Source: Candidatus Pacearchaeota archaeon
Lineage (GTDB): Archaea; Nanobdellota; Nanobdellia; Pacearchaeales; GW2011-AR1
Length of the DNA: 52,204 bases
Direction of reading: 5' to 3'
Assembly: GCA_038869535.1 (NCBI GenBank)
Contig: JAWCQY010000001.1
Coordinates: 1-52,204 of the forward strand
A program made the position numbers and the translations under genes. Of the stretch, positions 114 to 51,294 are shown in pieces. Within the stretch, counting starts at the first letter, position 1. Every line of letters starts with the position of its first letter. The notes beneath the pieces were generated by a model. That model made no database searches. It saw only the letters and a program-made list of their open reading frames with translations, and had not been told where the DNA came from.

Positions 114-1211
114 TTAACTTCTGATATAATGTTTTCCCATTTCGATATTCTGCATAAATTTCTGTTCTCTTTCTATTAGCGCTTTCAATATATTTTCTCT
201 GTCATTTCCTCCAAATGCATCAAGTCTTGATTTATTTTCTTTCTTAAATTTTCTTAGTTCACTTATATCATTTATGCATTCAATTGCTCTTATAATCTTT
301 TCAGGATTTTCCCAGTCTTCTGCAGCTAATATTACTTTTTCATTAACTATTTCTGCCTTTTCAATTTCCGAAGGAATGTCCCATTGAATTGACTTATTTT
401 CAGCCGATTGACCATTTTCTTTTGCTTCAATTCCTTTTGGAAAAGCATCATTTATACTGTGATATCCTTCTTCTATTCCTTTTAGTGTCCCGCTTATTAA
501 TAATATTTTATCAATATCCCAGCTGCTCGATTTGCCAAAATTTTTTTCGATCAATTCTTTGGCAACATTTAATCTCTCAGCTCTCTTAACTAACATATCC
601 CTTGCTTTTTCAATCCCGTTCTTCTTTATATACTCTTCTAATTTTTTGCGATACCCTTCTTTTGCTCTTCTGAGACCAGCTTCTATTACATAATTAGGCA
701 GTGCATTAAGTATTACATTCCTCATTGCTTTTGAAGTCCCTATCTGAAATACTATTTCATCATTTCTCTCTTTTTCATATATAGCATTGCCTTTCTTATT
801 TTTCAAAATCTTTTTCTTAAGTATATATGGTCTCGATAAATTGAAACCAGTTTCAAAATCAATAAAGTCCCCTATCAATACATATTTATCACCTAAATCA
901 AATGGTCTCACTTCTACTGCATTATTGCCCCAATTTCTTGCAAGTATTAACGCCCCGTTTATTCCAACACCTTCTATATACTTGTCCCCCTGCGGATATG
1001 AATAATAAAAATCTTCACCGCTTATTGCTGCCTCTTGTTCTACTCTGTTTATAATATCGGTTAATTCTCTTTTTTTAATTACCTGAACTGCAGTTTGATA
1101 TCTCGTCTTTGTCTGCACAAGTCCTTGAACCCTTAAAAGTTCAGAAGCATTTAATGAATCTTCTTTTATTTCTTCTGCTTTAATTTCCAGTGCTTCATTA
1201 TTATTGTTCAT
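114..1211 (-). CDS. putative single-strand annealing protein (RecT-like)
   Basis: 365 aa, ATG with GGAG RBS. Immediately downstream of a Cas4/RecB-like exonuclease gene (the usual phage exo + annealase pair). IGTSKAMRNVILNALP resembles the RecT C-terminal KTAIRRLxKxLP motif. Not verifiable without an HMM search. Confidence 0.5.
   Translation of the reverse strand: MNNNNEALEIKAEEIKEDSLNASELLRVQGLVQTKTRYQTAVQVIKKRELTDIINRVEQEAAISGEDFYYSYPQGDKYIEGVGINGALILARNWGNNAVEVRPFDLGDKYVLIGDFIDFETGFNLSRPYILKKKILKNKKGNAIYEKERNDEIVFQIGTSKAMRNVILNALPNYVIEAGLRRAKEGYRKKLEEYIKKNGIEKARDMLVKRAERLNVAKELIEKNFGKSSSWDIDKILLISGTLKGIEEGYHSINDAFPKGIEAKENGQSAENKSIQWDIPSEIEKAEIVNEKVILAAEDWENPEKIIRAIECINDISELRKFKKENKSRLDAFGGNDRENILKALIEREQKFMQNIEMGKHYIRS
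366..383 (+). repeat. palindromic element, half copy (TTCCGAAGGAATGTCCCA)
   Basis: 16/16 match to the left arm of the 63-mer (TTCCGAAGGAATGTCC); the trailing CA diverges. Encodes DIPSE in the RecT-like ORF. Confidence 0.6.
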
Positions 1212-2696: not shown

Positions 2697-2963
2697 CTAA
2701 TTTAATTTTGTAAATAAATTTACTTTTTCAGCTGCATAAGAATTTCTTAATCGTTCAGATAATACTATAGATGTAATTATTAACCGCACTAATGCTCTTT
2801 CTTCTTCACAAAGAAGTTTATGATACTTTTCATACTCTTTTAGTCTTTTTCCGAAGGAATGTCCAAAAGGACTCCTTTTGGGAATCCATTCCTTCGGAAG
2901 GAGGATTCCCACTTCAATTATTGGTCTAATTTTAAAAAGCAAATTATGATTTGATGCTGTCAC
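2697..2963 (-). CDS. hypothetical small protein; 21 codons supplied by the palindromic element
   Basis: 88 aa, GTG start abutting the upstream stop. GILLPKEWIPKRSPFGHSFGK is encoded by repeat 2849-2911. May not be a genuine gene. Confidence 0.35.
   Translation of the reverse strand: MTASNHNLLFKIRPIIEVGILLPKEWIPKRSPFGHSFGKRLKEYEKYHKLLCEEERALVRLIITSIVLSERLRNSYAAEKVNLFTKLN
2849..2911 (+). repeat. palindromic element, full 63-nt copy
   Basis: TTCCGAAGGAATGTCCAAAAGGACTCCTTTTGGGAATCCATTCCTTCGGAAGGAGGATTCCCA. Confidence 0.95.
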
Positions 2964-7666: not shown

Positions 7667-8531
7667 TAGACCATCGGGCAAAAAAAATAACTGCATTGCA
7701 TATTCTGTCATTGTATTGCTTGTTTCTGCGGTCTTACCATTACCTTACATATATTATAAACTTTTGGGAATCCTCCTTCCGAAGGAATGGATTCCCAAAA
7801 GGAGTCCTTTTGGACATTCCTTCGGAATAAGATGGATTTTATTATTTGCCTCATTATACTTCTTTGCTCTCTTCCTGCATATAAATGACAAATATCTTGA
7901 AAGATGGTTGAAAATTTTTTTTGCAATATCTTTCCCAATTATTGCTGTTCTCTTTAATCCATTCAAACCGTTCCACTTTAATAAAATTCTTTGGAGTTAT
8001 ATTGATGTTTTTTCAGCTGTAATTTTCTCAATCTCAATTTTCCCACTAAAAGAAATGCAGGAAAATTATTCAGTAATCAAACTATTCAGTTGCTTAGAAG
8101 AACATGCACATTTAGAAAAAATACATGTTCCAATATTCGTTGCAGGCTTTATAATTTTATCTTTATTCATTCAGTTTATTCTGCCTGTTTCATTCAATAC
8201 ATATTTTCACCAGGAAACATTAATTAGTATACTGATTTATATAAGTCTGCGGGGTCTTATAGTCATTTATCTTTTAACAGTATTATTTGTTATCAATTAT
8301 TTTTACTTAAGAAGAAAACTAATTAATAATATCAAAAACAAAATTTTTTTAGAACAAAATGAATTATTCCATACATTATGCCGGGATCTTTATTCATTAA
8401 AAGACATAAACGATATAAAAAATTGGGAATATAACAATACTTACTGGCTTAAAAAACTAACAAAATCACAATATGATGAAATAATAAAATTAATAGATAC
8501 CAAAAGAAAACAGTTATCTGCTATAAATTAA
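7656..8531 (+). CDS. polytopic membrane protein carrying an in-frame palindromic element
   Basis: 291 aa with at least 5 hydrophobic helices. GILLPKEWIPKRSPFGHSFGI is encoded by repeat 7765-7827. Confidence 0.55.
   Translation: MIFNRPSGKKNNCIAYSVIVLLVSAVLPLPYIYYKLLGILLPKEWIPKRSPFGHSFGIRWILLFASLYFFALFLHINDKYLERWLKIFFAISFPIIAVLFNPFKPFHFNKILWSYIDVFSAVIFSISIFPLKEMQENYSVIKLFSCLEEHAHLEKIHVPIFVAGFIILSLFIQFILPVSFNTYFHQETLISILIYISLRGLIVIYLLTVLFVINYFYLRRKLINNIKNKIFLEQNELFHTLCRDLYSLKDINDIKNWEYNNTYWLKKLTKSQYDEIIKLIDTKRKQLSAIN
7765..7827 (-). repeat. palindromic element, full 63-nt copy (inverted)
   Basis: 63/63 identical to the reverse complement of 2849-2911. Confidence 0.95.
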
Positions 8532-21100: not shown

Positions 21101-23577
21101 TTTGGGTCTTTCCATACAATTATAGGATCAAATGCGGCTGGATTATAATTTTTTTCAATTGATGATGCTGTCTCTTCACTAAATGATGTTGCTCTATTCT
21201 GAAATCTTCCCTCATCTGTTTTTATGTCTTTAATTGGTATTTCTTTAATTTCTGCAATCTTTGTTTCAGTGGGAATCTCTTCCTTCGGATAAGGAATATC
21301 CTGTTTTTGTATTTCCTTTTCTAAAGGAATTTCTAAGGAAGAAGATTTCGGTTGAATATGTTCTTGTTTTTTCCAGCTGCTTATAAATTTTCCTTCTTTA
21401 TAATCTCCAATATCTATTTCATCATTAATTGCAGCTTGAGTTATATAATCTTCTGCAAGATTTTCTGCTTCTTTTTCTTCAATACCTTGTTTCTTAAAAT
21501 CATCAGCTAAGTATCTAAAAGCCATAGCCATAGGATCTTTGTGTGTCCCCTCTCCCATTACAAATATTTTTTCTTCACCTTTCGGTAATTTTATTTTTAT
21601 TGCTCTGCCTCTATTTGCCCCTATAACTTCCGGCTGCTTTGTTAGTGCTGATTTTTGTTCTGCAAGTCCATATAAATCTGAATCTATATCTGCATTTAAC
21701 AAATCAGCTGCTAATGTCCGCCTGCTGAAATCTTCCAGCAGTAGTCCTTTTTCAAGTTCTTTATCTTCTGCTGATGAAATTCTTGCTTTATTATTAGGCA
21801 ACTTTAAATATTCATTAAATTCAGTTTCAAAATTCTTTCCTAATTTATCTTTTGCTTCTTTAATTACTTCTGCAGTTGGTTTTTTCGTCAGGATTTCTTT
21901 TGCTTTTTGTACATTCTCTCTTTCACTTCCTGTGGGAATCCATTCCTTAGTTTGTTGTATACCCTTTCTGCTAATCCCTTCTTTTAATTTATTAACCTCT
22001 TGTTCTAATAACTCAGGATAATTTTTTTGCAGCTGCAATTCTTCCAGTGTAAATTCTTTTTCACCTTCTGCTATCTTATCAGCTAATGCTTTAATTTGCT
22101 TTTGTTCACTCGATTCTAATAATCCTTGTATTCCTTTTTTCATTGGTTCCGTTGTTTCTATCTTATCTCGTTTTTCACCAAAGAAAATTTCCCCTGCTGT
22201 AGGTGCAAGCTGTTCTAATTTCTTTTCTATTATTTCTTTCTCTTCCTGTGTTCTTCCTTTTGTGTATTTTGCTGCTTCAATTACTTTCTCGGCAGTTTTA
22301 GATTGAGGAATTCTCTCTGATGGTATTATTGGTTTTGCTTGGATTGGTATGCCTAAGCTTAGATTCTCAAATGCTTCGTTTATTTCTTTGTTTAATTTTT
22401 TCTCTAAGTTTTTATCAAGCTTAACTTTCCCGGCTTTAATTCCAATTACAGTCCCAAAGAATAATCCATTGCTTATTAATTCCTTTGCTATCTCTCTGTC
22501 CTGAGGTTTTAATTTATCAAATGCCCCTGCTTCTTCAAGTTTTTTAATTCCTTCTTCAGATAATAATGAACCTATCCCTACAGCTGGACCAAAAGCGAAT
22601 GGCAGTATTTTATTTGTAATTTCTTCTCCTTTTCTTTTATCGTAACCAAGATTTTCGGCAATTTCACCGCCAATTTCAGCTGCGAGTGGTTGTATAGCTG
22701 TATATGCTGCAACTGCAGGTATTGATTGTAACATACCTTTTAATGCACCTGCGGCCTGCTGTGCCGTACCTCTTGCTGTAGTCTCTAATCCTGCAGATAA
22801 TGGACTTATTTTGTCAAACTTAGATTTAACATTGAATCCCTGTAAACGATATAAATCTGCAATTTCTTTATTTGACGTACTTGTTATTTCATTCCCTTTT
22901 TCATCATATATTGTATAAACATTTTTTAATTCATCCTGCCCGGTTATATATCGAATCCCCTTTCTTACATTTTCTCTTCCTTTACCTATTAATTCAAGTG
23001 CATCAGCTAAATTTTCAGGAATATTTTTTATCCCTTCACCTATCTTTGATAAATATTCGAGTGCATTAACTTTTCTTGATCTTGGTGCTTCAACTGCAAT
23101 TCCGCCAACCTGAGTAAGTATGGAAGGGTGAATTTGTGCAGGTGTAAATCTTCTTCCTTTTGATGCTTCAAGTATTTTATTGATATCTTCCTTTGTTTTG
23201 ATGTCAATTGGAGTATTATGGGAATCCATTCCTTCGGAATAAGTTTGTGCAAAATTATTTTCTTTTTTTTGCTGATAATCTCTCTCTGAATTTAAGCCAG
23301 ATACTTTTGCTTTCTCAACATTATATATTGAATCTTTTTGCTCATCTGTTAAATCAGTTCTTAACCAGAAATCTGCATTGAAAGGATCATTTAGGGAATT
23401 ATATATTTCTTCTTTTCTTAATGGGGCTTGAGTCCTTTTTTTAAGTACTGATTCTACATAATCAATACGTTTTCCGACATCAATTAATTTTTGTAAGCCT
23501 CTGCCGATGGATCTTTCATTTACATCAGTTGAACTTCCCTCTATATCTATATTGATTAATTTTTCTAATCCTGTCAT
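15109..23577 (-). CDS. giant (2822 aa) polyvalent virion/ejection protein with ParB/Srx-like nuclease domain
   Basis: Single uninterrupted ORF with an ATGA overlap to the upstream gene, last gene of the late block. Gly-zipper hydrophobic region at aa 258-385 and a ParB-like domain at aa 778-880 (VLAGHSRLEG). Carries at least 3 repeat copies. Confidence 0.7.
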   Translation of the reverse strand: MTGLEKLINIDIEGSSTDVNERSIGRGLQKLIDVGKRIDYVESVLKKRTQAPLRKEEIYNSLNDPFNADFWLRTDLTDEQKDSIYNVEKAKVSGLNSERDYQQKKENNFAQTYSEGMDSHNTPIDIKTKEDINKILEASKGRRFTPAQIHPSILTQVGGIAVEAPRSRKVNALEYLSKIGEGIKNIPENLADALELIGKGRENVRKGIRYITGQDELKNVYTIYDEKGNEITSTSNKEIADLYRLQGFNVKSKFDKISPLSAGLETTARGTAQQAAGALKGMLQSIPAVAAYTAIQPLAAEIGGEIAENLGYDKRKGEEITNKILPFAFGPAVGIGSLLSEEGIKKLEEAGAFDKLKPQDREIAKELISNGLFFGTVIGIKAGKVKLDKNLEKKLNKEINEAFENLSLGIPIQAKPIIPSERIPQSKTAEKVIEAAKYTKGRTQEEKEIIEKKLEQLAPTAGEIFFGEKRDKIETTEPMKKGIQGLLESSEQKQIKALADKIAEGEKEFTLEELQLQKNYPELLEQEVNKLKEGISRKGIQQTKEWIPTGSERENVQKAKEILTKKPTAEVIKEAKDKLGKNFETEFNEYLKLPNNKARISSAEDKELEKGLLLEDFSRRTLAADLLNADIDSDLYGLAEQKSALTKQPEVIGANRGRAIKIKLPKGEEKIFVMGEGTHKDPMAMAFRYLADDFKKQGIEEKEAENLAEDYITQAAINDEIDIGDYKEGKFISSWKKQEHIQPKSSSLEIPLEKEIQKQDIPYPKEEIPTETKIAEIKEIPIKDIKTDEGRFQNRATSFSEETASSIEKNYNPAAFDPIIVWKDPKDNNIYVLAGHSRLEGMKRRGAKTIPAKFFEGTEREAINYAIIESNRKATQEDILADIRAYKKAKSEGYSKQKLLELFKKESKIKTLENYSHLDENGQFLSALNSESAKTYPYLERNASWVGELRKMYPQLTDGHEQELFDYFYRDRLSHSFIKKEELFDKVEDRVTDVTFNKYQKLALDKLENAGARARSDTRDIQLKIDLLKARNRELKKLSLGAPEEQKKIFQKEIISNIEEIKKLESNINEIVNSQFDIFEQLNQELKEGGFNEESGSQIVASGDPEELEKLAEDLESKAETAGRISTEELRKEINKSGQILFQRYIEYNDNPKNEIEISLLRAYNSFDNELPLREEILDNLIRNRWIRKTQDEEVKRALISFLKEFVKQGRYESYDNYIKRALKEKPELITSYIYLRSKLNEAVRKREKDNNFISDYRREIERKEKRENLSQQSSSIEKENKQILKQEHTSKNIFNAAKEEFGTTQNIRKAGYILPDGSMLDFSGGEDKRYLDHTEIRRLNTSIEDFIDKGAIRFMPEADAFYFTRMPTVQQMKIIKKIADIKDGYITLGIGEDFYREYDKGTKTDEIISDIENYFIYGKSKSKIDEIRKSKDYQGEREELFQLWELERTPLQELQDRRRHLQYIIESDKSSKNEKIKAEEELKKVEIQLKKLREQNNQLNIFEAEQGNLFQQSATQPSREKFQNLNDYDREIKLKQSRKNDLRTVYSKMSEGQRRKFLDELVKGIDKEWLIGQKDLTKEQAKGLTDLLEKAILFDPEKADLTTAWEESFHASIVTLARPYLARNLLRENGWDGKGEIWDVKNNESLRNAHENLAKKYIEWRKRQEENPAEPKTRLEKLFQLLRELWAKIASFLNKIGFKTEAGYFYDLATGKLRKSNEKVSDNEFYNELAKSQTDFEKSLEDFKNGKLTKPAKVTTTPEILVKLGAEQLPVIITPETIAKVIHKHQITYEQLKDLPVELHDPIMVFQSATRPNSFVIMTELRSDKGNIVAAIHLSKREQQHFVNKIASVYIKERDKTFIEWIDKGLLRYYNKNKSQIWLRSAGLRLPMEVTKSGSTKILTEDDLINNKLMQKISEIQEELYPKDLKYYMDRIATIKNIYELKNWRKKHEAEIEELPAWERDDIINAWNEQHRLFTGERGGWEAEKVNRKYESKYEGTKEEFKKYLPQASELFDEGYRRYADFSKKIRERAGDISPDDILKLFRETYKAKLREYRKSKEEEGTIVEPKADLTDKKTEELKNEIKKILINKNMPKKLQEEILRTAEEIINNPKNRLGKYSKIRALTEFGEKIKLMTLKYGAAGAELAQRIAHGTKNRMDIIERYYEIINKIEDVYDKIKSESGEQEIKRIEAKIIKALEDRDNVKEILKSDIEKELYELYLKIYGGKDIPFGFYNEIKKAGYKVRSDYFPHIIRDSFIIDEIISNPADVMEINTKGLNNFISANSRYLNPREFDIKDIRRDLLGITKNYIFSVSKALAYKDAVNYYYTDFKNDIPPLLKKQSMRTAIQYMRSVLDPEIPSRNLFMRMLRGMRNAEYTNFLSFSLKNAVQNYTQKDFAKLYMTPEAVRITNKIFYKYKQATGNLLNAIYEASHETPRYLELSMEDIKRSRLLRINEKIRKVEPFQLAELSNWKYAELGGIIDYVIKQPEYKRLRNKGLSEIEAINKVLENRDTFDTAVRNGMDLASQTQISPSAAYRPSLFDKELIRFFLMFKRFPIATLEHISQTIFTSMKGAEGLRAQRILRRGLSENVKPVEMLRAAELYRKAAELMIKNYKNYEEEFGISDLKEYHYWLKKQEESLNKTIEKLEPMRNKSQIIYHWSKYWAKAALISSAFSFIYDLTDAMFYNLIHGEEEKDRLMELLAGENLTEKEKERLINKLIAKTLFDISPLPFYALNPQNFAASPLLPKVEIFPYGDYFNWNKRGITRSLTSYGLNVVPVLGLVDRVTGRAISKKITDWIVPEEEKEKTKIMIPKINIERASAGR
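17892..17952. repeat. long GC-containing hairpin inside the giant ORF
   Basis: AGCCGGATTTGGTTAC (17892-17907) pairs with GTAACCAAATCTGGCT (17937-17952): 16 bp with one mismatch. The 29-nt loop is GC-rich. Confidence 0.6.
20938..21246 (-). other. ParB/sulfiredoxin-like nuclease domain of the giant protein
   Basis: IPIKDIKTDEGRFQNR...DPIIVWKDPKDNNIYVLAGHSRLEGMKRRG. Confidence 0.65.
21271..21289 (+). repeat. palindromic element core, degenerate
   Basis: GGGAATCTCTTCCTTCGGA in the giant ORF (KEEIPT). Confidence 0.45.
21934..21948 (+). repeat. palindromic element core, 15-nt partial
   Basis: GGGAATCCATTCCTT in the giant ORF (KEWIPT). Confidence 0.6.
22423..22806 (-). other. Gly/Ala-rich hydrophobic (glycine-zipper-like) region of the giant protein
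   Basis: PLSAGLETTARGTAQQAAGALKGMLQSIPAVAAYTAIQPLAAEIGG...LPFAFGPAVGIGSLL...GLFFGTVIGIKAG. Confidence 0.5.
23220..23239 (+). repeat. palindromic element core, exact 20-mer
   Basis: GGGAATCCATTCCTTCGGAA. Encodes SEGMDSH in the giant ORF. Confidence 0.95.
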
Positions 23578-25296: not shown

Positions 25297-25327
25297 TTTT
25301 TCCTCCCTGCTTGTCTTAGGTGTTAAT

Positions 25328-25792
25328 TCATTCCTTTGGAACAAGCCAATAATTTTTTTCTAAAATTTTATGATTTTCAAAACATTCATAAAATCCTGCT
25401 TTCTTGAAAATCTTTGCATTTTTTTCATTCGCAAAACATCTTATAATTTTTATTCCTTTTTCTTTAATATAATTTTCAATGTAATCCCAGAGTTTTTTCC
25501 CAATTATTGCATTCTCGGAAATGAATGGTTCTATCATCAACACAAATCTTAAATTTGCAATTGCTTTTATTTGACCATTATTATCCTCTGCAATAATCAA
25601 TTTGCCTTCTTTCGGAAATGTTATATTATATTTTTTCTCAAATTCATTTATTTTATTACTGTCATTTTCTAATATTGGGTATCCTCCTTCCGAAGGAATG
25701 TCCAAAAGGACTCCTTTGGAGGATTCCCAAAAGGAGTCTTTTGGGACATCCATTTGGGAATAATCACGAATTTTCATAATTGTAAATCCCAT
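25328..25792 (-). CDS. GNAT-family N-acetyltransferase with repeat-derived N-terminal segment
   Basis: 154 aa. ...ENAIIGKKLWDYIENYIKEKGIKIIRCFANEKNAKIFKKAGFYE fits the GNAT motif A region. Residues about 11-38 are encoded by mosaic repeat 25677-25760. Confidence 0.6.
   Translation of the reverse strand: MGFTIMKIRDYSQMDVPKDSFWESSKGVLLDIPSEGGYPILENDSNKINEFEKKYNITFPKEGKLIIAEDNNGQIKAIANLRFVLMIEPFISENAIIGKKLWDYIENYIKEKGIKIIRCFANEKNAKIFKKAGFYECFENHKILEKNYWLVPKE
25677..25760. repeat. palindromic element, 84-nt rearranged mosaic copy
   Basis: GGGTATCCTCCTTCCGAAGGAATGTCCAAAAGGACTCCTTTGGAGGATTCCCAAAAGGAGTCTTTTGGGACATCCATTTGGGAA. 28 codons of the GNAT ORF. Confidence 0.85.
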
Positions 25793-25824
25793 TTCGCATT
25801 CAATATATTCTCAATTTCTTTATT

Positions 25825-29182: not shown

Positions 29183-29202
29183 GCTGTCTCCTCTTAAAAA
29201 TA

Positions 29203-29268
29203 AAAACCGATAATTATCCTTCTCTTTTTTAGAAAAAGATCATCATCGGCTTCTTTTTATCGAATTAC
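29203..29268 (-). terminator. late-gene punctuation module (box + imperfect hairpin + U-tract), copy b
   Basis: Minus strand: GTAATTCGATAAAAAGAAG-CCGAT...ATCGG-TTTTTATTTTTAAGAGGAGACAGCATG. 29249-29268 is 20/20 identical to 41431-41450. Confidence 0.45.
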
Positions 29269-29304
29269 CGTTAATAAATCTGCTTGCCGCAGTTAAGTTT
29301 ATTT

Positions 29305-30252
29305 TTATGGAGTTACCGTATAATCAAATTCATTCACTATTTTATTTAATGCATTTAACTCTGATTTATTAAGAACAGATAATGATGCATAATTGTTTAC
29401 TGTTACATCTGCTTCAGGCTCACTTGTAAGAAATGTTTCTGTTTCATATAAAATGTTGTTCACGTTTTTATTCAACTTATCTTTAACAATATATTCGATA
29501 TTTGTTATACCGAATATATTTTGGAATGTAATTTCTTTGCCTGTAGAAAATGCCATCAATTCACTGCTTATTTCCTGTTTTGTTTGCTCGCTTGTTGAAT
29601 ATATTCTGCAGTAATATATCTGCTCTAATTCCAACCCGGTAATTAATTCATCGTGATAAAATTCATATTCATCATTTCTTACCTCATTGCTTAAATTCTC
29701 AGGAGACAGTCCATATACTACTCTTCCTTTGGCTCTATGTGTAGTTGCCCATACTACTTTTACAGAATTTGCCGTTACCTCACCTGCTAATGGTACTTTT
29801 ATTTCAAATGGAGTATATATTATAGAAAAACTTGGCGGTTCAGGCTGTTCTTCTATTTCCATTAATTGCAATGGTTTGCCGCCATACTTCCCAATTGGAA
29901 TTTCTTTTACTGAAATCCTTAAAGATGTCAATTCAAGTTCTTCTGCATATCCATATAATCTAATGTAAAAACATACTGCGAGTATTCCCGGCGGCAGTTT
30001 CTGCTTGAATATTTTATCATCTTTGTTCAGTTTAAATGTTACGCTTTCCCATTGCATATCAGTATTTCTTTTATAATATACAGTTATAAATAATTCTCCA
30101 TGGGAATCCATTCCTTCGGAAGAAGTTTTTATTTTATAAAATTCACCTGATATATAGCCAAGTAAATATCTGCCATTGCTTTGACTTTCTTCGAATATAT
30201 TAATTACTGGACCCGAAACATCTATTTCAATAGCATTACCATAATCATTCAT
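29305..30252 (-). CDS. structural protein with FN3-like domain
   Basis: 315 aa. VTANSVKVVWATTHRAKGRVVYGLSPENLSNEV...YYCRIYS is fibronectin-III / PAP-N-like. Core repeat at 30102-30121 encodes SSEGMDSH. Confidence 0.5.
   Translation of the reverse strand: MNDYGNAIEIDVSGPVINIFEESQSNGRYLLGYISGEFYKIKTSSEGMDSHGELFITVYYKRNTDMQWESVTFKLNKDDKIFKQKLPPGILAVCFYIRLYGYAEELELTSLRISVKEIPIGKYGGKPLQLMEIEEQPEPPSFSIIYTPFEIKVPLAGEVTANSVKVVWATTHRAKGRVVYGLSPENLSNEVRNDEYEFYHDELITGLELEQIYYCRIYSTSEQTKQEISSELMAFSTGKEITFQNIFGITNIEYIVKDKLNKNVNNILYETETFLTSEPEADVTVNNYASLSVLNKSELNALNKIVNEFDYTVTP
30102..30121 (+). repeat. palindromic element core, exact 20-mer
   Basis: Encodes SEGMDSH in the FN3-domain protein. Confidence 0.95.
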
Positions 30253-30776
30253 AATATTTTTCCTGTTATATTGAATTTAACAACGAAAATAATTATTAAT
30301 ACAATTACCAGAAATATTATTATTCCTTTTGCTGCATATCCCAATTTTTCGGTTGTTGTAACTTCTTTTTTCTCTGTTATCATTGTTGTATCTGATATTA
30401 TTGTATCAACTTTATGTTCTTCTATATCAAGCTCAAAAAATTTTTTCTTGGGATAATATTTTACTTTTGCTTTTGTTTTGCCTTTTGCTGTCATTATCTC
30501 TTTTTCTCCTTCTATTCTTGCTTCTTCTGGTACCTTTTGAAATAGACTGTCAATTGCTTTGGTTATTTCAGCAGATATATCTTTATATTCAGCTTTTATC
30601 GAATCTTCAATTTTAGGGATGGTAATTTCAACTTTTCTTGCTTTAATTATTGTCTCCCCGCTTGAACAGGCAATTACAAGTATTATTAAACTAATTCCGA
30701 AGGAATGTCCAAAAGGACTCCTTTTGGGAATCCATTCCTTCAGAAGGAGGATTCCCAAAACAATTATATTTTTCAT
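30249..30776 (-). CDS. unimolecular-spanin-like lipoprotein (N-terminal lipobox, C-terminal TMD) interrupted by the 63-nt element
   Basis: 175 aa. ATGA overlap with the endolysin stop. Lipobox LVIAC|SSG. C-terminal helix GIIIFLVIVLIIIFVV. Codons 8-26 come from the repeat. Confidence 0.55.
   Translation of the reverse strand: MKNIIVLGILLLKEWIPKRSPFGHSFGISLIILVIACSSGETIIKARKVEITIPKIEDSIKAEYKDISAEITKAIDSLFQKVPEEARIEGEKEIMTAKGKTKAKVKYYPKKKFFELDIEEHKVDTIISDTTMITEKKEVTTTEKLGYAAKGIIIFLVIVLIIIFVVKFNITGKIL
30695..30757 (+). repeat. palindromic element, full 63-nt copy (62/63)
   Basis: One mismatch (CGGAAGG to CAGAAGG). Lies inside the spanin-like signal peptide. Confidence 0.95.
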
Positions 30777-31282
30777 GATTTCATTAAATACTTTTTGTAT
30801 AATGTTTCTTTGTCGCCTGTACTGTAAAGAAATGTTTCGGCTTCTCTTCTTTTAATTAATCCTTTCAACACAATCAATTTCCCGTTTATATTTGCTTTGT
30901 TATACTGACTCATTATATAAACAGTAGTTCTAACATTATTTTCATTTATAGACTTTTGTAAATTTCCTTTAATTCTGTAACCTGTGTTGTAACTAAAACT
31001 TACTATAGCATCAAATTGATTCCAGATTAAAATCCTTTTTACTGAGTTATTTACATATTTCTCAAATCTTTCAAGATCTTTCTTTAATAATTCTTCCGCT
31101 TCTTTTTCAGTAATTACCATATTGGGATATATATCTTTTCCTGTGTGTCCATAACCGATTGTTAAGATTGATGCCGGACATAAATAAGCCTGACTTCTGA
31201 ACCCTTCAAAAAATTTTATTAAATCTATTCCAGCTTGTGATGTTTTTAATCCCATAATTATTATTAATATTAAACCTTTCAT
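30773..31282 (-). CDS. GH24 (T4/P21-type) endolysin with N-terminal signal/SAR-like segment
   Basis: 169 aa. FFEGFRSQAYLCPASILTIGYGHTG gives E26-x8-C35-x5-T41. N-terminus MKGLILIIIMGLKTSQAG. Confidence 0.75.
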   Translation of the reverse strand: MKGLILIIIMGLKTSQAGIDLIKFFEGFRSQAYLCPASILTIGYGHTGKDIYPNMVITEKEAEELLKKDLERFEKYVNNSVKRILIWNQFDAIVSFSYNTGYRIKGNLQKSINENNVRTTVYIMSQYNKANINGKLIVLKGLIKRREAETFLYSTGDKETLYKKYLMKS

Positions 31283-31285
31283 TCT

Positions 31286-31765
31286 TCATCTTAAAAAGAT
31301 TGTTATATGTAATACAGTTACCAGTATACCGCTTGTAAGCAGTGCTGATGCTAAAACTACCATTGATGATGTTCTTTCTTTTTCACTTAATTTCATATCT
31401 TCGCCTTTGAATTTGTACCTTGTAAAAGGCAAATCTGTGAATAAATATTGCAGCAATGTTGCAAGTAATGCAGTTAATGGTATATAGATTAAACTCATTA
31501 TTATTACCTCAAATACTTTTATAATCCTGCTTTCTTTATCAATCGCAGTAATTTCATTTTGTAATTTTATTACAAGATTAATGTCTTTATAATTATTTGT
31601 TTTATCATCATACTGTTGCGCGATTAAGTTATACCTTTTAGAAATTTCTATTTCTTTTTCATTTGCATTTGGCAGCAGCCATATAGTTAATAAAATTAAA
31701 CCTGCTGTTGCAATAATAATTGCAGTTGTGTTCAGTTTCATCTTCTTTAACCATTCTTTTCCCAA
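31286..31765 (-). CDS. putative holin (3 TM segments)
   Basis: 159 aa, TTG with GAGG RBS. Hydrophobic helices at about aa 14-31, 85-105 and 135-157. Directly upstream of the endolysin. Confidence 0.45.
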   Translation of the reverse strand: MGKEWLKKMKLNTTAIIIATAGLILLTIWLLPNANEKEIEISKRYNLIAQQYDDKTNNYKDINLVIKLQNEITAIDKESRIIKVFEVIIMSLIYIPLTALLATLLQYLFTDLPFTRYKFKGEDMKLSEKERTSSMVVLASALLTSGILVTVLHITIFLR

Positions 31766-31774
31766 TTTATACCT

Positions 31775-32062
31775 CTACTTTTTTTGATAAATAAATTTAT
31801 CCTCAAACTTGTCAAACTTCTTATTCAGGATTTCAAGCTGTTCATTAATTAATTTTAATTGTTCCTGCAGTCCCGGTATTTGGTCAATTCTTATATACAT
31901 TTCTTTTATTTCCTGCCTGTAGCTTTCTATTGCATTTATTATTTCTTTTTTAACTTCTTCCTTTGACGGCTTCTCATCAAGTTTTGCAACTGTATATCCA
32001 ACATTAAATGTTACAATTGCAATCGCTACAATTATCTGCCAGTATTCAGTTATTTTCTTCAT
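31775..32062 (-). CDS. membrane-anchored coiled-coil protein (lysis-associated; antiholin or spanin-like)
   Basis: An ATG at 32062 after GGAGAG is preferred over the track start at 32104, which overlaps the fibre gene. One N-terminal TM helix, then a coiled coil. Confidence 0.4.
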   Translation of the reverse strand: MKKITEYWQIIVAIAIVTFNVGYTVAKLDEKPSKEEVKKEIINAIESYRQEIKEMYIRIDQIPGLQEQLKLINEQLEILNKKFDKFEDKFIYQKK

Positions 32063-32073
32063 TATTCTCTCCA

Positions 32074-33534
32074 TTATAATGTAGATGCTTTCCTTCTGAA
32101 CCAATAAAATTGCAAATCTGCTGTCCCGTTGCTTCCTCGTCTTACTATTAATTTACCTGTCTGTGCTTCAGCTATAAGCATATCATTTGCATTCCACACT
32201 TCTGATTTTGGGGTCAAATAATATCTGTCATTTGCATTTGCACCATTTATATTTATCTCACAGTATGATGATGTTCCTGAAAATTGTCCTGTCCCGCTTT
32301 GTATATAATCTTTTACTTCTTCTATCGTTGGTATTTCTTTGGTATATAAATTTGCACCGTCATCAAATCTTATTTTTAATCTGAATAATCTTTTGCCGGT
32401 TTCATCAATAAAAGTATTATCAGTCCAGACAGCATTTGCATAATATTGCGGATTTCCCATATATCTTACGTCTGGCAGTTGCAATAATCCTGAATTCATA
32501 TCAATGCTTGAACCTGTTTTCCCGATAATCCTGCTGTAAAAATCACGCTGAATCCCTGTCTTGCCTATAAGTATTTCCGCATCATTTTTTACAGCATCAA
32601 GTACCTTCTTAATTGGCAGCACTTCAAAATATTCATCGTTTATTGCATCTGGTTCATTATAATGACTTCTGCCAAAATTGACTAATATTCTTTTGTTTGT
32701 TTCATCGATATAAATTGCACCTGGTGCGTCTTCTGCATAATAACCATTCTGCGCATTTCTCACAGGTAATGCATATACTTGCCCATTGTGGTACATATAT
32801 ATACCGACACCGTTTATTTGTCCATCATGAACTGATAAACCATGAAGACTTACATAATTTTCACCTTCACTTGAACCTAAAACAAGAAAATTAGTCCCTG
32901 AACCATCCTTTGATATTTTTACTACATTATTTGCACTGTCATAATAAATTGCTCCAGTTCTCCGTCCTGGAGATGTATTCGGTGGTGTTAACGGCAATGC
33001 AAATGAACTGCCGGGAATAGGAGAAATATCTATATTGAAAAATGTTTTAACTCCTGTAATTGTTTGATCCCCTGATATTAAAACCATTCCCGAAGTTTGT
33101 CCGCTTCCTCCTCCGCTCCCTACAGCTATATAATTTCCATTGCCTTCTAAATCGACTTTAATAGTTCTGCTGTTAACATCAAAATATGCATTACCTACAG
33201 CATTTACTGCCGGTGGTTGTGTTGGCAGTTTAATTCTTACCGGCAAAACTGCCCCGATGAAGTTAAGATTTTGATCAAATAAAGCTGCTATATGCTGTAA
33301 TATGCTTTCTGGATGAAAAATATTCTGCGTATATAATGAACCATTGATATATATTTTATATTCACCAAGCGGCACACCATCTTTATAATACCAGCCTTTC
33401 CTTGTTGGATGTTCAATTAATGTTATTTTCCCTTCAGGATAATTTTTATCTTGCGGCACTAATTCAATTATAGCTCCAAGCAGAGGATTGCCAGTGTTAT
33501 TTGTAAATCTTCTCTCGAATTTTGATGTTGCCAT
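32074..33534 (-). CDS. tail fibre protein
   Basis: 486 aa. Gly-rich hinge GSGGGSGQTSG. Position between the tail spike and the lysis cassette. Confidence 0.5.
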   Translation of the reverse strand: MATSKFERRFTNNTGNPLLGAIIELVPQDKNYPEGKITLIEHPTRKGWYYKDGVPLGEYKIYINGSLYTQNIFHPESILQHIAALFDQNLNFIGAVLPVRIKLPTQPPAVNAVGNAYFDVNSRTIKVDLEGNGNYIAVGSGGGSGQTSGMVLISGDQTITGVKTFFNIDISPIPGSSFALPLTPPNTSPGRRTGAIYYDSANNVVKISKDGSGTNFLVLGSSEGENYVSLHGLSVHDGQINGVGIYMYHNGQVYALPVRNAQNGYYAEDAPGAIYIDETNKRILVNFGRSHYNEPDAINDEYFEVLPIKKVLDAVKNDAEILIGKTGIQRDFYSRIIGKTGSSIDMNSGLLQLPDVRYMGNPQYYANAVWTDNTFIDETGKRLFRLKIRFDDGANLYTKEIPTIEEVKDYIQSGTGQFSGTSSYCEININGANANDRYYLTPKSEVWNANDMLIAEAQTGKLIVRRGSNGTADLQFYWFRRKASTL

Positions 33535-33552
33535 TCTAAATCTCCAATTAAA

Positions 33553-33626
33553 ACAAAAAGGCAGTTATTTATCCTTTTATTACAAAAATTATAGAATAAA
33601 TAACTGCCTCTTTTTATTGAGTAACA
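33553..33626 (-). terminator. late-gene punctuation module, copy c
   Basis: Minus strand: GTTACTCAATAAAAAGA-GGCAGTTATTTAT(23-nt loop)ATAAATAACTGCC-TTTTTGTTTTAATTGGAGATTTAGAATG. The 13-bp stem is perfect (33560-33572 with 33596-33608). Confidence 0.6.
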
Positions 33627-33640
33627 GTAAATTTTAGATA

Positions 33641-37887: not shown

Positions 37888-37898
37888 TTCTTAATCCC

Positions 37899-38531: not shown

Positions 38532-38534
38532 TCT

Positions 38535-39164: not shown

Positions 39165-39649
39165 TATAAATCAACTTCTCCTGATTTCTTTTCCCGAAGG
39201 GATGAATTCCCAGATTTCACTTTTATATCATGTATAATTCTCTCAATTATTCTTTCACTGCTCTGATTTTCAACTTTTTTTAACCCCAATGCTTTTGCTG
39301 TTAGTATCAAATTTTTCTTTTCAAGTTCATTTAATGCTATCTCAAGTCTGTCATGGTTTATTTCAAGAAATTCAATTGGATTAAACTCACCCTTTTGCTC
39401 ATTCGTATCATTCGTTTCATAAGGCTCTTCTCCCGAAGGGATATCCCCTATGACTCCTTCAGAGGATTCCCGCTCATCTGCCAGTCTGTAAATATGCGGA
39501 TAATTCTTAATGTAGTAATCTGCTATATAATCAGGCACCTCTATTGGCTTTTTTGCTTCTAATTCTATAACCAACTTATCTTTATTTGGAAATTTCCATT
39601 TTGGTGGAATTACTAACACTTTATCTGCTTGGCTTATAATTTTTTTCAT
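39164..39649 (-). CDS. hypothetical acidic head-associated protein carrying two degenerate repeat copies
   Basis: 161 aa, AAGGAG RBS. ERESSEGVIGDIPSGEEP is encoded by 39429-39473. Confidence 0.55.
   Translation of the reverse strand: MKKIISQADKVLVIPPKWKFPNKDKLVIELEAKKPIEVPDYIADYYIKNYPHIYRLADERESSEGVIGDIPSGEEPYETNDTNEQKGEFNPIEFLEINHDRLEIALNELEKKNLILTAKALGLKKVENQSSERIIERIIHDIKVKSGNSSLREKKSGEVDL
39191..39212. repeat. palindromic element, degenerate fragment
   Basis: TTCCCGAAGGGATGAATTCCCA. Confidence 0.4.
39429..39473 (+). repeat. palindromic element, short variant
   Basis: TCTCCCGAAGGGATATCCCCTATGACTCCTTCAGAGGATTCCCGC. Confidence 0.65.
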
Positions 39650-39671
39650 ATTTTCTCCTTTTTATTTCAAA

Positions 39672-39692
39672 GGCAGCCTGTTAAAGGCTGCC
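39672..39692 (-). terminator. hairpin after the capsid-region genes
   Basis: GGCAGCC-TGTTAAA-GGCTGCC. On the minus strand it is followed by TTTGAAATAAAAAGG. Confidence 0.5.
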
Positions 39693-39698
39693 CGTGCA

Positions 39699-40046: not shown

Positions 40047-40083
40047 TTTAATCTCCTTTAATTAATTATTTATTCTAAATTAA

Positions 40084-41406: not shown

Positions 41407-41450
41407 AAAAAAAGCAGCCTATTATTAACTGCTTCTTTTTATCGAATTAC
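41407..41450 (-). terminator. late-gene punctuation module, copy a (immediately 5' of the capsid RBS)
   Basis: Minus strand: GTAATTCGATAAAAAGAAGCAG-TTAATAATAGG-CTGCTTTTTTTGTTTTAAAAATTTTGGAGGAAAATATG. Confidence 0.55.
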
Positions 41451-41520: not shown

Positions 41521-42879
41521 TTAATATTTATTTCTGATGCTCTCTAAAATTTTATCCAGCTGTTCATCATCTGTAATTTTTCTTATATCATCAAAATCTA
41601 TTGACTTACTCGTTCCTTTCGAATGTCCTAATGTTTTTAAATTTTCATCCTTCAATTTCTCAATAGTCTGTTTATCTTTTTTAATTTTATTATTAACAAG
41701 AGTTGTAAGAATTTTTGCATTATTCTCATAAATGAATTTCTTTGCTAATTGTCCTTTCTTCAGGAACGGAACTTTACCAATTCTGCCAATTACATTATTG
41801 TCAACTTCATTGCCATTCAGCATTAAAGAATTTAATGTTTCATTGTAATAGCTCCCATTTTCATCTTTTTCAAGATTCAAGTCTACTCCTAAATCTTTTT
41901 CCTCAATACCATATTTTTTTAACTCTTCCCTGATCATTTTCACTTCTTCTTCAAGTGCTCTGTTGTTCACTTCACGGAAATTATCATTTAATTCTTTAAG
42001 CTTTGGCAATGTTTTTTCATTTAGAATTGGCAAAAGCTCTGCAGGTGTTTCATTATACAGGTTCTTTAAATGCACTTGTGCATATAACACTTTTTGAAAT
42101 TCATTTTTTATTTCAGAAGTTGTATTTTCTAAATCACGAAGAAATTCATTTACTTTTTTATAACCGCCTTCATCAAATAACGCTCTTTCCCATTCCCTGT
42201 ACTCTTCGCTGGTCATATCTTCAGGCATATCAGGATATTTTTTCTTCAATCTTTTGACGGTTTCTCTGTCAATAATTTCTTTCATTTCATTTTCTGGTAC
42301 TTCGGAAAATTCTATTTTAGGTGAAGTTTTTATTTTCTCTTCTCCCTCTGTAACAGGTAATCCAGTCTTAGCCTGAGTTTCTATAAGTGTTTTTAATACT
42401 TCTTCGTCACTTTGAGAACTTATTTTTTTTGCTATAGCTTGTATTGCTTCTTCGTTGTCTCTCAAATAAGGATTTTTCATTGCTATAGCATTGGCAGCTG
42501 CAAAAGCAAGCTCTTCTTTGTTTTTGCCTCTGTACTTGTTCAGTATTTTTCTATATTCTTCAGGCTGATTCTCTATTATTTTATCACTTAAAACAAATGT
42601 CTCTTCTTCTGCTGTTTCTTCTTCTTCCGAAGGAATGTCCCGAAGGACTCCTTCTGAGGATTCCCGCTCTCCCTCATCTTGTTTTTCTTCTTCAGAAGTA
42701 TCCTTTTCGGGTTCTGAAGTTTCTTCTTTCGATGAAGTATCCATTTCGGGTTCATCGAATTTTTCTTTGATGAGTTCTAATGCAGCATCAATCTCTTCAT
42801 CATCAGTTAAATTCTTTATTACATCTAACCTGTCATCTTCATCTATAAATTCAGTTTCATTTTCTTTGTAATCAGCCAT
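41521..42879 (-). CDS. scaffolding protein (acidic, coiled-coil)
   Basis: 452 aa, highly acidic N-terminus, long helical regions. Lies between portal and capsid. Repeat variant 42625-42667 encodes ERESSEGVLRDIPSEEE. Confidence 0.55.
   Translation of the reverse strand: MADYKENETEFIDEDDRLDVIKNLTDDEEIDAALELIKEKFDEPEMDTSSKEETSEPEKDTSEEEKQDEGERESSEGVLRDIPSEEEETAEEETFVLSDKIIENQPEEYRKILNKYRGKNKEELAFAAANAIAMKNPYLRDNEEAIQAIAKKISSQSDEEVLKTLIETQAKTGLPVTEGEEKIKTSPKIEFSEVPENEMKEIIDRETVKRLKKKYPDMPEDMTSEEYREWERALFDEGGYKKVNEFLRDLENTTSEIKNEFQKVLYAQVHLKNLYNETPAELLPILNEKTLPKLKELNDNFREVNNRALEEEVKMIREELKKYGIEEKDLGVDLNLEKDENGSYYNETLNSLMLNGNEVDNNVIGRIGKVPFLKKGQLAKKFIYENNAKILTTLVNNKIKKDKQTIEKLKDENLKTLGHSKGTSKSIDFDDIRKITDDEQLDKILESIRNKY
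42625..42667 (+). repeat. palindromic element, short variant
   Basis: TTCCGAAGGAATGTCCCGAAGGACTCCTTCTGAGGATTCCCGC. Confidence 0.8.
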
Positions 42880-48120: not shown

Positions 48121-48181
48121 CCGATTACAAACCGTTTATAATACTAAATTCATCTTCTTAAAGGAAAAAATAAATTCTTCT

Positions 48182-48201
48182 GGAAGTCCATTCCTTTGGA
48201 A
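48182..48201 (+). repeat. palindromic element core, degenerate (17/20), intergenic
   Basis: GGAAGTCCATTCCTTTGGAA in the terminase upstream gap. Confidence 0.5.
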
Positions 48202-49234: not shown

Positions 49235-49254
49235 ACTTTTCTTTTTCCGAAGGA

Positions 49255-49307
49255 ATGTCCTAAAGGATTCCTACGGAGGTCCAAAGGACTCCTTCGGGAG
49301 ATTTCCA
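49255..49307 (+). repeat. palindromic element, mosaic copy, intergenic
   Basis: TTCCGAAGGAATGTCCTAAAGGATTCCTACGGAGGTCCAAAGGACTCCTTCGGGAGATTTCCA. Confidence 0.8.
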
Positions 49308-49321
49308 TTAATGCTATAAAA

Positions 49322-49870: not shown

Positions 49871-50624
49871 GTGTTTTAAAATTCCTGAAATTACGTAACC
49901 TTGCTTCTTTCATGATTTCCAGCGTTTTATCTCCACCAAACTGCATAATCAAATTTTCAATGAACTCCCGTTCAGGAATCGTTGGACTTCTCCCATAACT
50001 CCGTATTAATATTTCTGCTGCAGGATCCTTGTTTTTCTCATGAGAAAAATTTTGGGAATCCATTCCTTCGGAATTTGATGCGGGCGGGTTTATATATATC
50101 TCACTCTCATTTAATTTCCTTTCCTTTAATTTCTTTTCCTTTAATTTCTTTTCCCCGTTTCTGACAGCAGAAACTTTAATTAAATCGAATTTCTGTTGGC
50201 AATTATCCGTTTCTATTTGGGAATCCATTCCTTTGGAAGTAGTTTCTGCTTGCATTAACGGCTTTTTAGGCAGCTCAGCCTTCCTTCTTCTAAATGCATC
50301 TTTCACGTTATCCACTAAGTTCTGGCACCATATTATTTTATTTTTAGTCCATAATTCCTTGTCTATTGCATCTAATTCTGCCAGTGTATTTAAGATACTG
50401 CAGGCAATATCCTTTGTTACCCGAGTTTTTGCCAGCAGAAACTCCCAGTCTCCAACGTTATTGCAGTCATAATACATTCCTTCAGTGTTGCCGAGTATTT
50501 CAAGCAGTTTGAACCAAAAAGCATATCCATCATTTCCGTATCTGTTTTCCAATATGTATATTGTTTTTCCATGATGAATATTATGCGGGAAATAATTTAT
50601 TGTAGATTTTTGCGGTCTGCTCAT
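49734..50624 (-). CDS. DUF4373 / DnaD-like replication initiator-organiser
   Basis: 296 aa. INYFPHNIHHGKTIYILENRYGNDGYAFWFKLLEILG is typical of DUF4373. C-terminus is DnaD-like. The linker holds 3 x 15-bp repeats and two core repeat copies. Confidence 0.65.
   Translation of the reverse strand: MSRPQKSTINYFPHNIHHGKTIYILENRYGNDGYAFWFKLLEILGNTEGMYYDCNNVGDWEFLLAKTRVTKDIACSILNTLAELDAIDKELWTKNKIIWCQNLVDNVKDAFRRRKAELPKKPLMQAETTSKGMDSQIETDNCQQKFDLIKVSAVRNGEKKLKEKKLKERKLNESEIYINPPASNSEGMDSQNFSHEKNKDPAAEILIRSYGRSPTIPEREFIENLIMQFGGDKTLEIMKEARLRNFRNFKTLENAIDKNGNIKPKEGNNGIYAKHINEDKLRRIAEDIARDPDLKR
50054..50073 (+). repeat. palindromic element core, exact 20-mer
   Basis: Encodes SEGMDSQ in the initiator linker. 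Confidence 0.95.
50110..50154. repeat. 3 tandem 15-bp repeats TTTAATTTCYTTTCC (iteron-like)
   Basis: 50110-50124, 50125-50139 and 50140-50154. They encode KKLKEKKLKERKL in the initiator linker. Confidence 0.7.
50229..50248 (+). repeat. palindromic element core, 19/20
   Basis: GGGAATCCATTCCTTTGGAA. Encodes SKGMDSQ. Confidence 0.9.
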
Positions 50625-50631
50625 ACTTAAC

Positions 50632-51280: not shown

Positions 51281-51294
51281 AATTAACTTGCACA

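Follow-up and report, generated by a model that had tools for sequence, protein, structure and literature searches.

A 63-nt insert in a phage spanin-like gene is probably built from nested, mobile 21-nt repeats

The lysis cassette and its compound insert

We analysed the 52,204-nt contig JAWCQY010000001.1 (assembly GCA_038869535.1, filed under a Candidatus Pacearchaeota archaeon), hereafter the window, which holds a temperate phage with an integrase and a CI-like repressor (Pfam). This report concerns a 63-nt insert in the signal-peptide codons of its spanin-like lysis gene, open reading frame (ORF) 30249-30776, and the two 21-nt repeat units, S and T, of which the insert is composed. The genes of the lysis region and the parts of the insert are as follows.

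31286..31765, ORF with transmembrane segments, putative holin
31775..32104, ORF with transmembrane segments, putative holin
30773..31282, minus strand, endolysin (Phage_lysozyme PF00959, E=5.6e-35, Pfam; PHROG phrog_7)
30249..30776, minus strand, ORF resembling a unimolecular spanin (u-spanin), with a lipobox VIAC in its signal peptide and a C-terminal transmembrane segment
30695..30757, minus strand, 63-nt compound insert in the spanin signal-peptide codons, with an inner S inside T inside an outer S
30750..30757, plus strand (S sense; antisense to the gene), 3' part GATTCCCA of the outer S, delimited by the boundaries of the 42-nt indel
30746..30749, minus strand, first 4 nt (CTCC) of the T unit, by comparison with the intact T at 25701-25721
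30725..30745, minus strand, inner S unit TTCTGAAGGAATGGATTCCCA with one mismatch, nested in T
30708..30724, minus strand, last 17 nt AAAGGAGTCCTTTTGGA of the T unit
30695..30707, plus strand, 5' part TTCCGAAGGAATG of the outer S

The two membrane-protein ORFs precede the endolysin and the spanin-like gene. Neither gave a family match above the cut-off in Pfam or PHROG, and the holin label is putative, drawn from the hydrophobic segments. The start codon of the spanin-like ORF (ATG at 30776-30774) overlaps the TGA of the endolysin in an ATGA. A previous sequence-only reading of this DNA had described this overlap, the C-terminal hydrophobic helix and an element splitting a lipoprotein signal peptide; we found all three where it had placed them, and the endolysin on which the overlap depends is backed by the family matches given above. 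The 175-aa product begins with MKNIIVLGILLLKEWIPKRSPFGHSFGISLIILVIACSSG and ends in the hydrophobic helix, a transmembrane segment. It has no match in PHROG or Pfam, and the PHROG search detected no similarity to annotated spanin families. Unimolecular spanins of the T1 gp11 type, described by Summer, Young and colleagues, have an N-terminal lipoprotein signal with a lipobox Cys and a C-terminal transmembrane segment. The window protein shares both traits, and its gene stands directly after the endolysin; it differs from the T1 gp11 type in the 21-residue insert of its signal peptide and in its lack of similarity to annotated spanin families. The label is thus architectural, given for the lipobox, the transmembrane segment and the gene position.

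Orthologues of the spanin-like ORF were found at 6 IMG/VR loci and among database proteins (11), with 31-60% identity and the same gene order, and the u-spanin layout is kept in 11 orthologues. In all of them the N-terminus is a short lipoprotein signal peptide of the classical type, such as MKILFYILIILLLIGCSSSETIIKD. The insert is missing from them, and none has a comparable charged N-terminal extension. A GenBank phage search with the lysis region as query gave no match.

The insert is built from the outside inwards. Unit S (TTCCGAAGGAATGGATTCCCA, 21 nt) lies antisense in the spanin signal-peptide codons, unit T (CTCCAAAGGAGTCCTTTTGGA, 21 nt) sits in the centre of this outer S (GGGAATC^CATTCC), and the inner S enters T right after CTCC. 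Two matched GGA codons, at 30755-30753 and 30698-30696, lie 57 nt apart, as the sequence-only reading had stated. A pattern search allowing up to 3 mismatches found near-identical 63-nt copies at 2849-2911 (minus), 7765-7827 (plus) and 30695-30757 (minus), that is, 3 matches in the window compared with 0 in 100 shuffles. The copies claimed for ORFs 2697-2963 and 7656-8531 therefore exist, and all three share one reading frame, GILL[P/L]KEWIPKRSPFGHSFG. The sole substitution in the spanin copy changes P to L and gives GILLL; at the nucleotide level it is a C-to-T variant. The same spanin junction, this variant included, is present in a separate assembly contig (L037, run SRR27730037).

Presence and absence of the units between strains and across the window

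Run SRR27730022 supplied two sister-strain contigs, L038 and L041, which we aligned globally to the window over ~26.5 kb. They align to window positions 24729-40776, 50119-52204, 124-6255 and 7570-9843 at 97.7-99.5% nucleotide identity. The comparison gave 10 indels, two of which are 1-nt homopolymer differences. The other eight are exactly 21 or 42 nt long and correspond to S, T or T-plus-S units. Present only in the window are three 42-nt segments of T with a nested S (30708-30749, 2861-2902 and 7773-7814), a 21-nt T (25701-25721) and three 21-nt S units (30101-30121, 50218-50238 and 51490-51510), and one 21-nt S, at about 339, is peculiar to the sister strain. Where the window has its three 63-nt copies, the sister strain has each time a plain 21-nt S. 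At the spanin site, L038 has only TGGGAATC followed directly by TATTCCTTCGGAA, and its spanin begins with MKNIIGLGIYSFGISLIILVIAC, carrying just the 7-residue, uncharged reading of the antisense S. The closest homologues of the spanin (P0001, 161 aa) and of the product of ORF 7656-8531 (P0013, 277 aa), encoded on contigs L038 and L041, fall short of their window counterparts by exactly 14 residues each. All eight unit indels have exact unit boundaries and no target-site duplication, as illustrated by the exact empty site aaaacttc[S]tggagaa versus aaaacttctggagaa. This mobility of S and T at the strain level is the decisive result of the analysis. It bears out the earlier suggestion of a recent insertion into the hydrophobic (h-) region of the signal peptide: a near-identical sister strain lacks 42 of the 63 nt, and distant orthologues lack all of them.

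More distant relatives, the phages L002 and L003 (~50-60% protein identity), have the same insertion pattern. L002 is a 52%-identical phage, and in the 2822-aa protein S lies at non-orthologous positions, each of which is a 7-codon gap in the other phage; the L002 orthologue has five S units, at positions differing from the three of the window. One of these insertions is nucleotide-exact (AATTT[S]AACAGAT versus GATTTAACAGAT), and the orientation of S in L002 is mixed, with 3 on the plus and 3 on the minus strand. Exact-protein look-ups for further sister-strain contigs returned mostly the window's own strain or no match.

We considered whether the 21- and 42-nt differences could be assembly artefacts at repeats. 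Repeats do disturb these assemblies: L037, a short Logan contig from the same strain as the window, breaks off within the 63-nt element (L037 1436-1479). Since the sister contigs pass through the 21-nt form, it is the compound copies that break short-read assemblies. However, at eight sites in two long contigs the flanks of both alleles, empty and filled, are unique and the unit boundaries exact, the window junction is reproduced in an independent assembly, and the same pattern separates distinct phages. In addition, a 21-nt S is probably shorter than the assembler k-mer and should not mislead the assembly graph. We find an artefact hardly credible.

Within the window, S occurs in 8 exact and ~8 variant copies (1-4 mismatches), besides the compound copies, and its density is ~1 per 3 kb. 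The 17-nt S core has 15 window matches against 0.19 expected. T is intact at 25701-25721, and its other copies are variants. In the 42-nt forms (25688-25729, 42625-42666 and 39431-39472), T interrupts an antisense S at GGGAATC^CATTCC; in the three 63-nt forms T in turn holds an S right after its CTCC, and an 84-nt form (4566-4649) has two tandem S units at that place. The copies outside the spanin gene, with the empty site at 339, are these.

339..340, plus strand, empty site ttacttt^ttcatt in ORF 114-1211, where sister L041 has S
2849..2911, minus strand, 63-nt compound in ORF 2697-2963, central 42 nt missing in sister L041
4566..4649, minus strand, 84-nt intergenic compound, two tandem S inside T inside an outer S
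7765..7827, plus strand, 63-nt compound in ORF 7656-8531 (DUF6804), central 42 nt missing in the sister (P0013, L041)
21270..21290, minus strand, decayed S with 3 mismatches, in frame in the 2822-aa gene
21933..21953, minus strand, decayed S with 4 mismatches, in frame in the 2822-aa gene
23219..23239, minus strand, solo S in the 2822-aa gene
25688..25729, minus strand, 42-nt compound (T inside an outer S) in ORF 25328-25792, T at 25701-25721 missing in L038
27501..27521, plus strand, solo S antisense in ORF 26847-27728, read WESIPSE
30101..30121, minus strand, solo S in ORF 29305-30252, read SEGMDSH, missing in sister L038 and in the distant orthologue L003
39192..39212, plus strand, S variant TCCCGAAGGGATGAATTCCCA antisense in ORF 39164-39649
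39431..39472, plus strand, 42-nt diverged variant with a compensated TCCC...GGGA hairpin in ORF 39164-39649, present in both strains
42625..42666, minus strand, 42-nt compound (variant) in ORF 41521-42879
48181..48201, minus strand, decayed intergenic S
49245..49310, minus strand, intergenic compound of an S half and T-like units
50053..50073, minus strand, solo S in ORF 49734-50624
50218..50238, minus strand, solo S in ORF 49734-50624, missing in sister L041
51490..51510, minus strand, solo S in ORF 51295-51747, read FRRNGFP, missing in sister L041

Most unit copies are intragenic and a few intergenic. The S copies in coding sequence cover all six reading frames (3 sense, 3 antisense), and all are in frame. 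The sense readings are SEGMDS[HQ], PKEWIP and FRRNGFP. The antisense readings are mostly WESIPSE, with GIHSFG in the outer units of the 63-nt copies and a GNPFLR-type reading at 39192; the two rarer antisense frames occur only in this variant copy and in the split outer units. GGANTCC heptamers fall in S/T units at 26 of 30 window sites, with 3 expected. The idea of a GANTC (HinfI/CcrM-type) site was dropped, since GANTC overall is not depleted (121 observed, 135 expected). The exact core of the long element had no match in IMG/VR. Further unit fragments adjoin the 25688-25729 compound, up to about 25762. The 2822-aa 'polyvalent' protein (window 15109-23577), with its three S units, has a MuF_C and a weak ParB_N domain, and a DUF5131 (phage Gp37/Gp68) gene at 48503-49234 (E=5e-100) adjoins the intergenic compound at 49245-49310.

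Other features of the phage genome were observed alongside. L041 2044-2492 bridges the window end (52204) and start (1-124), with ~30 nt between, which indicates an essentially complete circular or circularly permuted genome of ~52 kb; in place of window 26-123, the sister strain has ~390 nt of unrelated sequence. Beside the CI-like repressor, a strain-level cassette replacement sets window 6255-7570 (ORFs 6301-6855, 6860-7084 and 7163-7666) against L041 8601-9915, where the sister has a 335-aa NfeD/ClpP-type protease and a 70-aa ORF instead. A 37-nt conserved motif (consensus ~ATnAnnAnCnGCtTCTTTTTATCGAATTAC) lies in three intergenic gaps between late-gene blocks (29239-29275, 33596-33632 and 41421-41457) and adjoins a 32-nt inverted repeat at 33550-33618; it resembles a shared module, either a terminator or a promoter, and bears no relation to S and T.

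Translation through the insert and the signal peptide

Read-through is the most likely fate of the insert, judging by its sequence properties. S and T are each free of stops in all six frames (p ~0.07 each), and the 62-nt compound consensus is likewise stop-free in six frames (p ~0.001-0.002, by shuffling or window sampling). The 63-nt insert has 0 in-frame stops, all unit lengths are multiples of 21 nt, and decayed copies with 3-4 mismatches are still in frame in the 2822-aa gene. These properties fit translated inserts and would be superfluous in an insert that is skipped or excised. The GGA...GGA pair appears to be intrinsic to the outer S and no recoding signal: the pair is formed by the two halves of this unit, TGGGAATC / CATTCCTTCGGAA, and it thus accompanies every copy, the 21-nt sister version included.

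The sequence-only reading had raised two ways in which the insert might be neutralised, translational bypass between the GGA codons and removal at the RNA level, and we would now set both aside. In a bypass, ribosomes would skip the 57 nt between the matched codons and restore MKNIIVLGISLIILVIAC, in the style of T4 gene 60 or of the Magnusiomyces mitochondrial byp elements, which Lang and colleagues reportedly described in 2014. Gene 60 cassettes and byp elements resemble the S/T inserts in being short, mobile, structured inserts in coding sequence with matched codons at their bounds. The GGA codons here are matched, an AAGGAG lies inside the gap, the RNA structure predicted over the gap is stable (-30 to -35 kcal/mol, z -3.3 to -4.3), and gene-60 cassettes are mobile too (bioRxiv 10.1101/2022.08.31.505936). 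The same structure would, however, follow from the palindromic build of the insert. We checked the gene-60 features singly against the list by Manning and Atkins (same preprint), and the S/T inserts depart from it at several points. First, the codon after the first GGA is ATC (7.9 per 1000), neither a stop nor a rare, hungry codon. Second, take-off at codon 8, with only MKNIIVLG made, leaves no long nascent peptide, so that a nascent-peptide signal is impossible. Third, the AAGGAG, which resembles a Shine-Dalgarno sequence, lies ~20 nt from the landing GGA and not ~6 nt. Finally, the GGA pair is in every S, also where the two codons are only 15 nt apart, which makes the matched codons a by-product of the internal repeat of the unit. 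S/T inserts are also always a multiple of three in length and stop-free in six frames, and copies have decayed in frame within the 2822-aa gene, which looks essential. On these grounds bypass is very improbable.

We give as little credence to the view that the units are cut from the mRNA before translation, by self-cleavage and ligation or by a host splicing endonuclease. Such removal would suit the conserved, covarying hairpin core and the strict sequence conservation at one host locus (both described below), but 21 nt is far smaller than any self-splicing RNA known, and the length, the stop-free frames and the in-frame decayed copies point to translation. Rfam gave nothing at gathering thresholds over the whole window and only chance-level matches in a permissive scan of 30600-30850. 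A tRNA scan of the window found none.

The explanation that we consider probable is that very small mobile repeats, with a 21-nt unit, make up the 63 nt as three nested copies, which ribosomes read through. At 21 nt and stop-free in six frames, the units would let ribosomes pass, and the spanin would gain 21 extra residues in a 175-aa precursor containing LLLKEWIPKRSPFGH. Of these residues, the final 14, which include K, E, K, R and two P, would have been gained, or lost in the sister, within strain-level time.

What such a precursor would do is another matter. Signal peptides were judged by rule-based checks (G+LPP lipoprotein pattern); the PROSITE lipoprotein rule PS51257 has a Cys range of 15-35. 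The window spanin fails the G+LPP pattern and has its Cys at position 37, outside this range, and the insert-borne K, E, K, R and two P now lie within the former h-region. The de-inserted sequence, the sister allele (Cys 23) and most orthologues pass the lipoprotein rules. We tentatively entertain the possibility that the insert is translated and the spanin inactivated or crippled because Sec and signal peptidase II no longer recognise the signal peptide. Equally tentative is its corollary, in which a temperate phage carries the allele as a recent hitch-hiker, mildly deleterious and not yet purged by selection. Besides the failed patterns and the charged and proline residues, this view can draw on the orthologues, none of which has such an extension, and on the strain comparison: the charge-adding 42 nt are polymorphic between near-identical strains and hence very young, perhaps too young for selection to have acted. 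Its integrase and CI-like repressor mark the phage as temperate, and a lysis defect could therefore persist for a while. On the other side, the rest of the ORF is intact, and the part that starts at K18 (KRSPFGHSFGISLIILVIAC) passes the lipoprotein rule on its own. The only substitution, P to L (GILLL), makes the first hydrophobic segment (h1) more hydrophobic, and bipartite long signal sequences work in other proteins, such as the long signal sequences with domain organisation of autotransporters (PMC2805444). The window precursor appears to be laid out as n1-h1-n2-h2, and export and lipidation may survive the insert. A search for alternative starts between the insert and the lipobox found no ATG, GTG or TTG in frame.

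Target, spread and relation to known small repeats

The target of S was derived from 36 independent contexts in the window, other phage contigs and Ignavibacteria metagenome-assembled genomes (MAGs). The left flank reads CTTN, with C at -4 in 28/36, T at -3 in 27/36 and T at -2 in 23/36, and positions +2 and +3 are A-rich. Because empty alleles keep CTTN, it belongs to the target and not to the element. S and T have a common 5' half, YTCCRAAGGART, which folds into a 4-bp stem with an RAA triloop. Over 26 distinct variants, columns 1-4 pair with columns 8-11 in 95% of cells, with 7 double-change cells; pair 2-10 is UA in 22 and CG in 4 with none unpaired, and pair 1-11 is UA in 21, CG in 2 and GC in 1. 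Covariation as high was reached in 0/500 shuffles. A second S hairpin (GGAA/TTCC, columns 8-11 with 16-19) was rejected, as it shows no covariation.

The identical 21-mer is present in unrelated phage contigs and in MAGs of Ignavibacteriaceae and Melioribacter (Ignavibacteria), with 26 distinct contexts across unrelated phages and hosts; a host factor is therefore likely. S and a compensated variant, TCCCGAAGGGATGGATTCCCA, also occur in contigs of 45% GC (L027, L028 and L034), which means that the S family is not confined to 30%-GC phages. As for how the units would move, the one-flank target, the lack of duplication, the covarying hairpin and the nested cargo are what a route mediated by an HUH/Y1-type enzyme or by RNA would give. 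The units would be recognised as single strands, either single-stranded DNA by such an enzyme or an RNA intermediate, and would be moved by a factor that the phage does not encode; T with its nested S would move as one 42-nt unit into S centres. On balance we lean towards the broader proposal that Ignavibacteria and their phages harbour, in S and T, an undescribed, active class of mobile elements, 21 nt long and headed by a hairpin, with single-strand transposition into CTTN and into each other and with an evolved translatability in all frames.

Two further settings of S were observed. In four other phage contigs, S stands in long tandem heptamer arrays (GGAATTA / GAATTAG / GAAGTAA; L001 ~5430-5491, L023 ~6080-6143, L026 ~1300-1500 and L032 ~2100-2159), which are followed by a G-rich conserved stretch, gtgggggtggaaagagtggggtgg, possibly an origin or packaging region. 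In the Ignavibacteriales bin QH2S170213_bin_135, an exact S unit lies 18 nt from the end of a ~150-nt multi-copy element with terminal inverted repeats AGAGACTTCTGAAA...TTTCAGATGTCTCT, on four contigs of this one MAG (L017 161-311, L018, L020 and L013).

The 21-mer might instead be primarily a functional DNA or RNA site, for example one bound by a host or phage protein, which selection keeps and whose spread is secondary. The strongest case for this comes from a host gene resembling that of the glutamate synthase small subunit (gltD-like; contigs L011 1056, L012, L029, L033 and L036), in which S is read SSEGMDSQ just before a GYDAVFIAVGAG motif. A 36-nt block of this gene, CTTCGTCTTC+S+GACTT (S and 15 flanking nt), is invariant in three lineages although flanking columns are 22% different (P ~0.005 for 21 nt, 1e-4 for 36 nt). 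A direct ACTTCG repeat flanks the block. The identity of the 21-mer over 26 contexts and its high density in the phage would also agree with a functional site. In contrast, sites were gained or lost between near-identical strains and have no positional conservation, positions are non-orthologous between related phages, several copies have decayed, and the units in L002 have no consistent orientation. A primarily functional site is accordingly an unlikely account of the 21-mer.

Several observations weigh against the explanation that we favour. The polarity of the three 42-nt differences could be that of gains in the window lineage or of precise losses in the sister. Translation through the insert is argued from sequence properties. 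The Pfam scan for a mobilising gene, which covered all window ORFs of >=70 aa except 6860-7084 and 8568-8783, found no transposase, HUH enzyme, reverse transcriptase or homing nuclease; its matches were an integrase, a PD-(D/E)XK nuclease, helix-turn-helix proteins, the CI-like repressor, portal, terminase, capsid, DUF5131 and other DUFs. The invariance in the gltD-like gene hints at a nucleotide-level function or at conversion, and not at pure selfish drift. 

The closest analogue of the units appears to be the small dispersed repeats (SDRs) of heterocystous cyanobacteria. SDRs are reportedly 21-27 nt long and share a hairpin with compensatory changes; they are said to nest in their own copies, to sit in tandem heptamer repeats and mini-transposons and to have been recently mobile, and they were reportedly proposed as the smallest mobile elements. 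We know of no enzyme or intermediate for the SDR class. If the SDRs are as reported, S and T resemble them in being dispersed 21-nt units with many copies in 52 kb and 8 precise strain-level indels, in nesting, in the covarying hairpin, in the heptamer-repeat contexts (L001, L023 and L026) and in the 150-nt context of S, which with its terminal inverted repeats is that of a miniature inverted-repeat transposable element (MITE). They differ from SDRs in belonging to Ignavibacteria and their phages, a phylum other than that of the Nostocaceae, with no sequence relationship known. In addition, S and T are mostly intragenic, with a strict length of 21 nt and six stop-free frames, show a defined preference for CTTN targets and are polymorphic between ~99% identical strains. 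The SDR work (Elhai et al. 2008, Genome Res 18:1484) is cited in PMC3116915 and PMC5861425, and SDR-like repeats were not found outside the Nostocaceae (PMC5861425). Our literature searches for the S/T sequence itself and for similar phage elements found nothing.

Other families share fewer traits with S and T. The Rickettsia palindromic elements (RPEs), reportedly described by Ogata and colleagues in 2000, are said to lie in frame in protein genes and to be translated as extra peptide segments. RPEs and S/T are alike in their in-frame residence in coding genes, in the lack of target duplication and in having no associated transposase; RPEs, however, are ~100-150 nt long (5-7 times longer), old and largely immobile, are neither modular in 21-nt quanta nor nested, and are not known from phages. 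The repetitive extragenic palindromic (REP) sequences, with REPINs and the Y1 HUH transposases known as RAYTs, share the size class of 20-40 nt, the hairpin-based recognition and the occurrence as singlets and as inverted doublets that form longer hairpins. REPs are extragenic and have a GTAG/CGTC tag (PMC3733652), whereas S and T lack this tag and most of their copies are intragenic. The Pfam scan of the window ORFs found no RAYT, TnpA or Y1_Tnp. With IS200/IS605 the units have in common the lack of target duplication and the insertion 3' of a fixed tetranucleotide on one flank only, CTTN standing left of S in ~75% of the 36 contexts, but IS200/IS605 derivatives need two subterminal hairpins and are much longer. 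Classical MITEs differ in that duplication was seen at none of the 8 polymorphic sites and S has no terminal inverted repeats.

To our knowledge, how repeats of 20-30 nt move has been an open question since REPs and SDRs were described. If our reading is right, S and T would be the smallest mobile elements known in any virus, translatable in all frames so as to colonise dense coding genomes, and would offer a tractable system in which to study the movement of very small repeats. The question would become open to experiment: the two co-sampled strains differ by eight insertions or excisions whose empty sites are exact, the target is defined (CTTN or the middle of another unit), and the hairpin covaries. 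For annotation, odd charged segments in phage signal peptides or loops may be such inserts and not recoding sites. At 21 nt and with six stop-free frames, a mobile element can be harmless in any frame by its build, and through S and T the structural, lysis and replication proteins of phages would vary by 7-residue indels.

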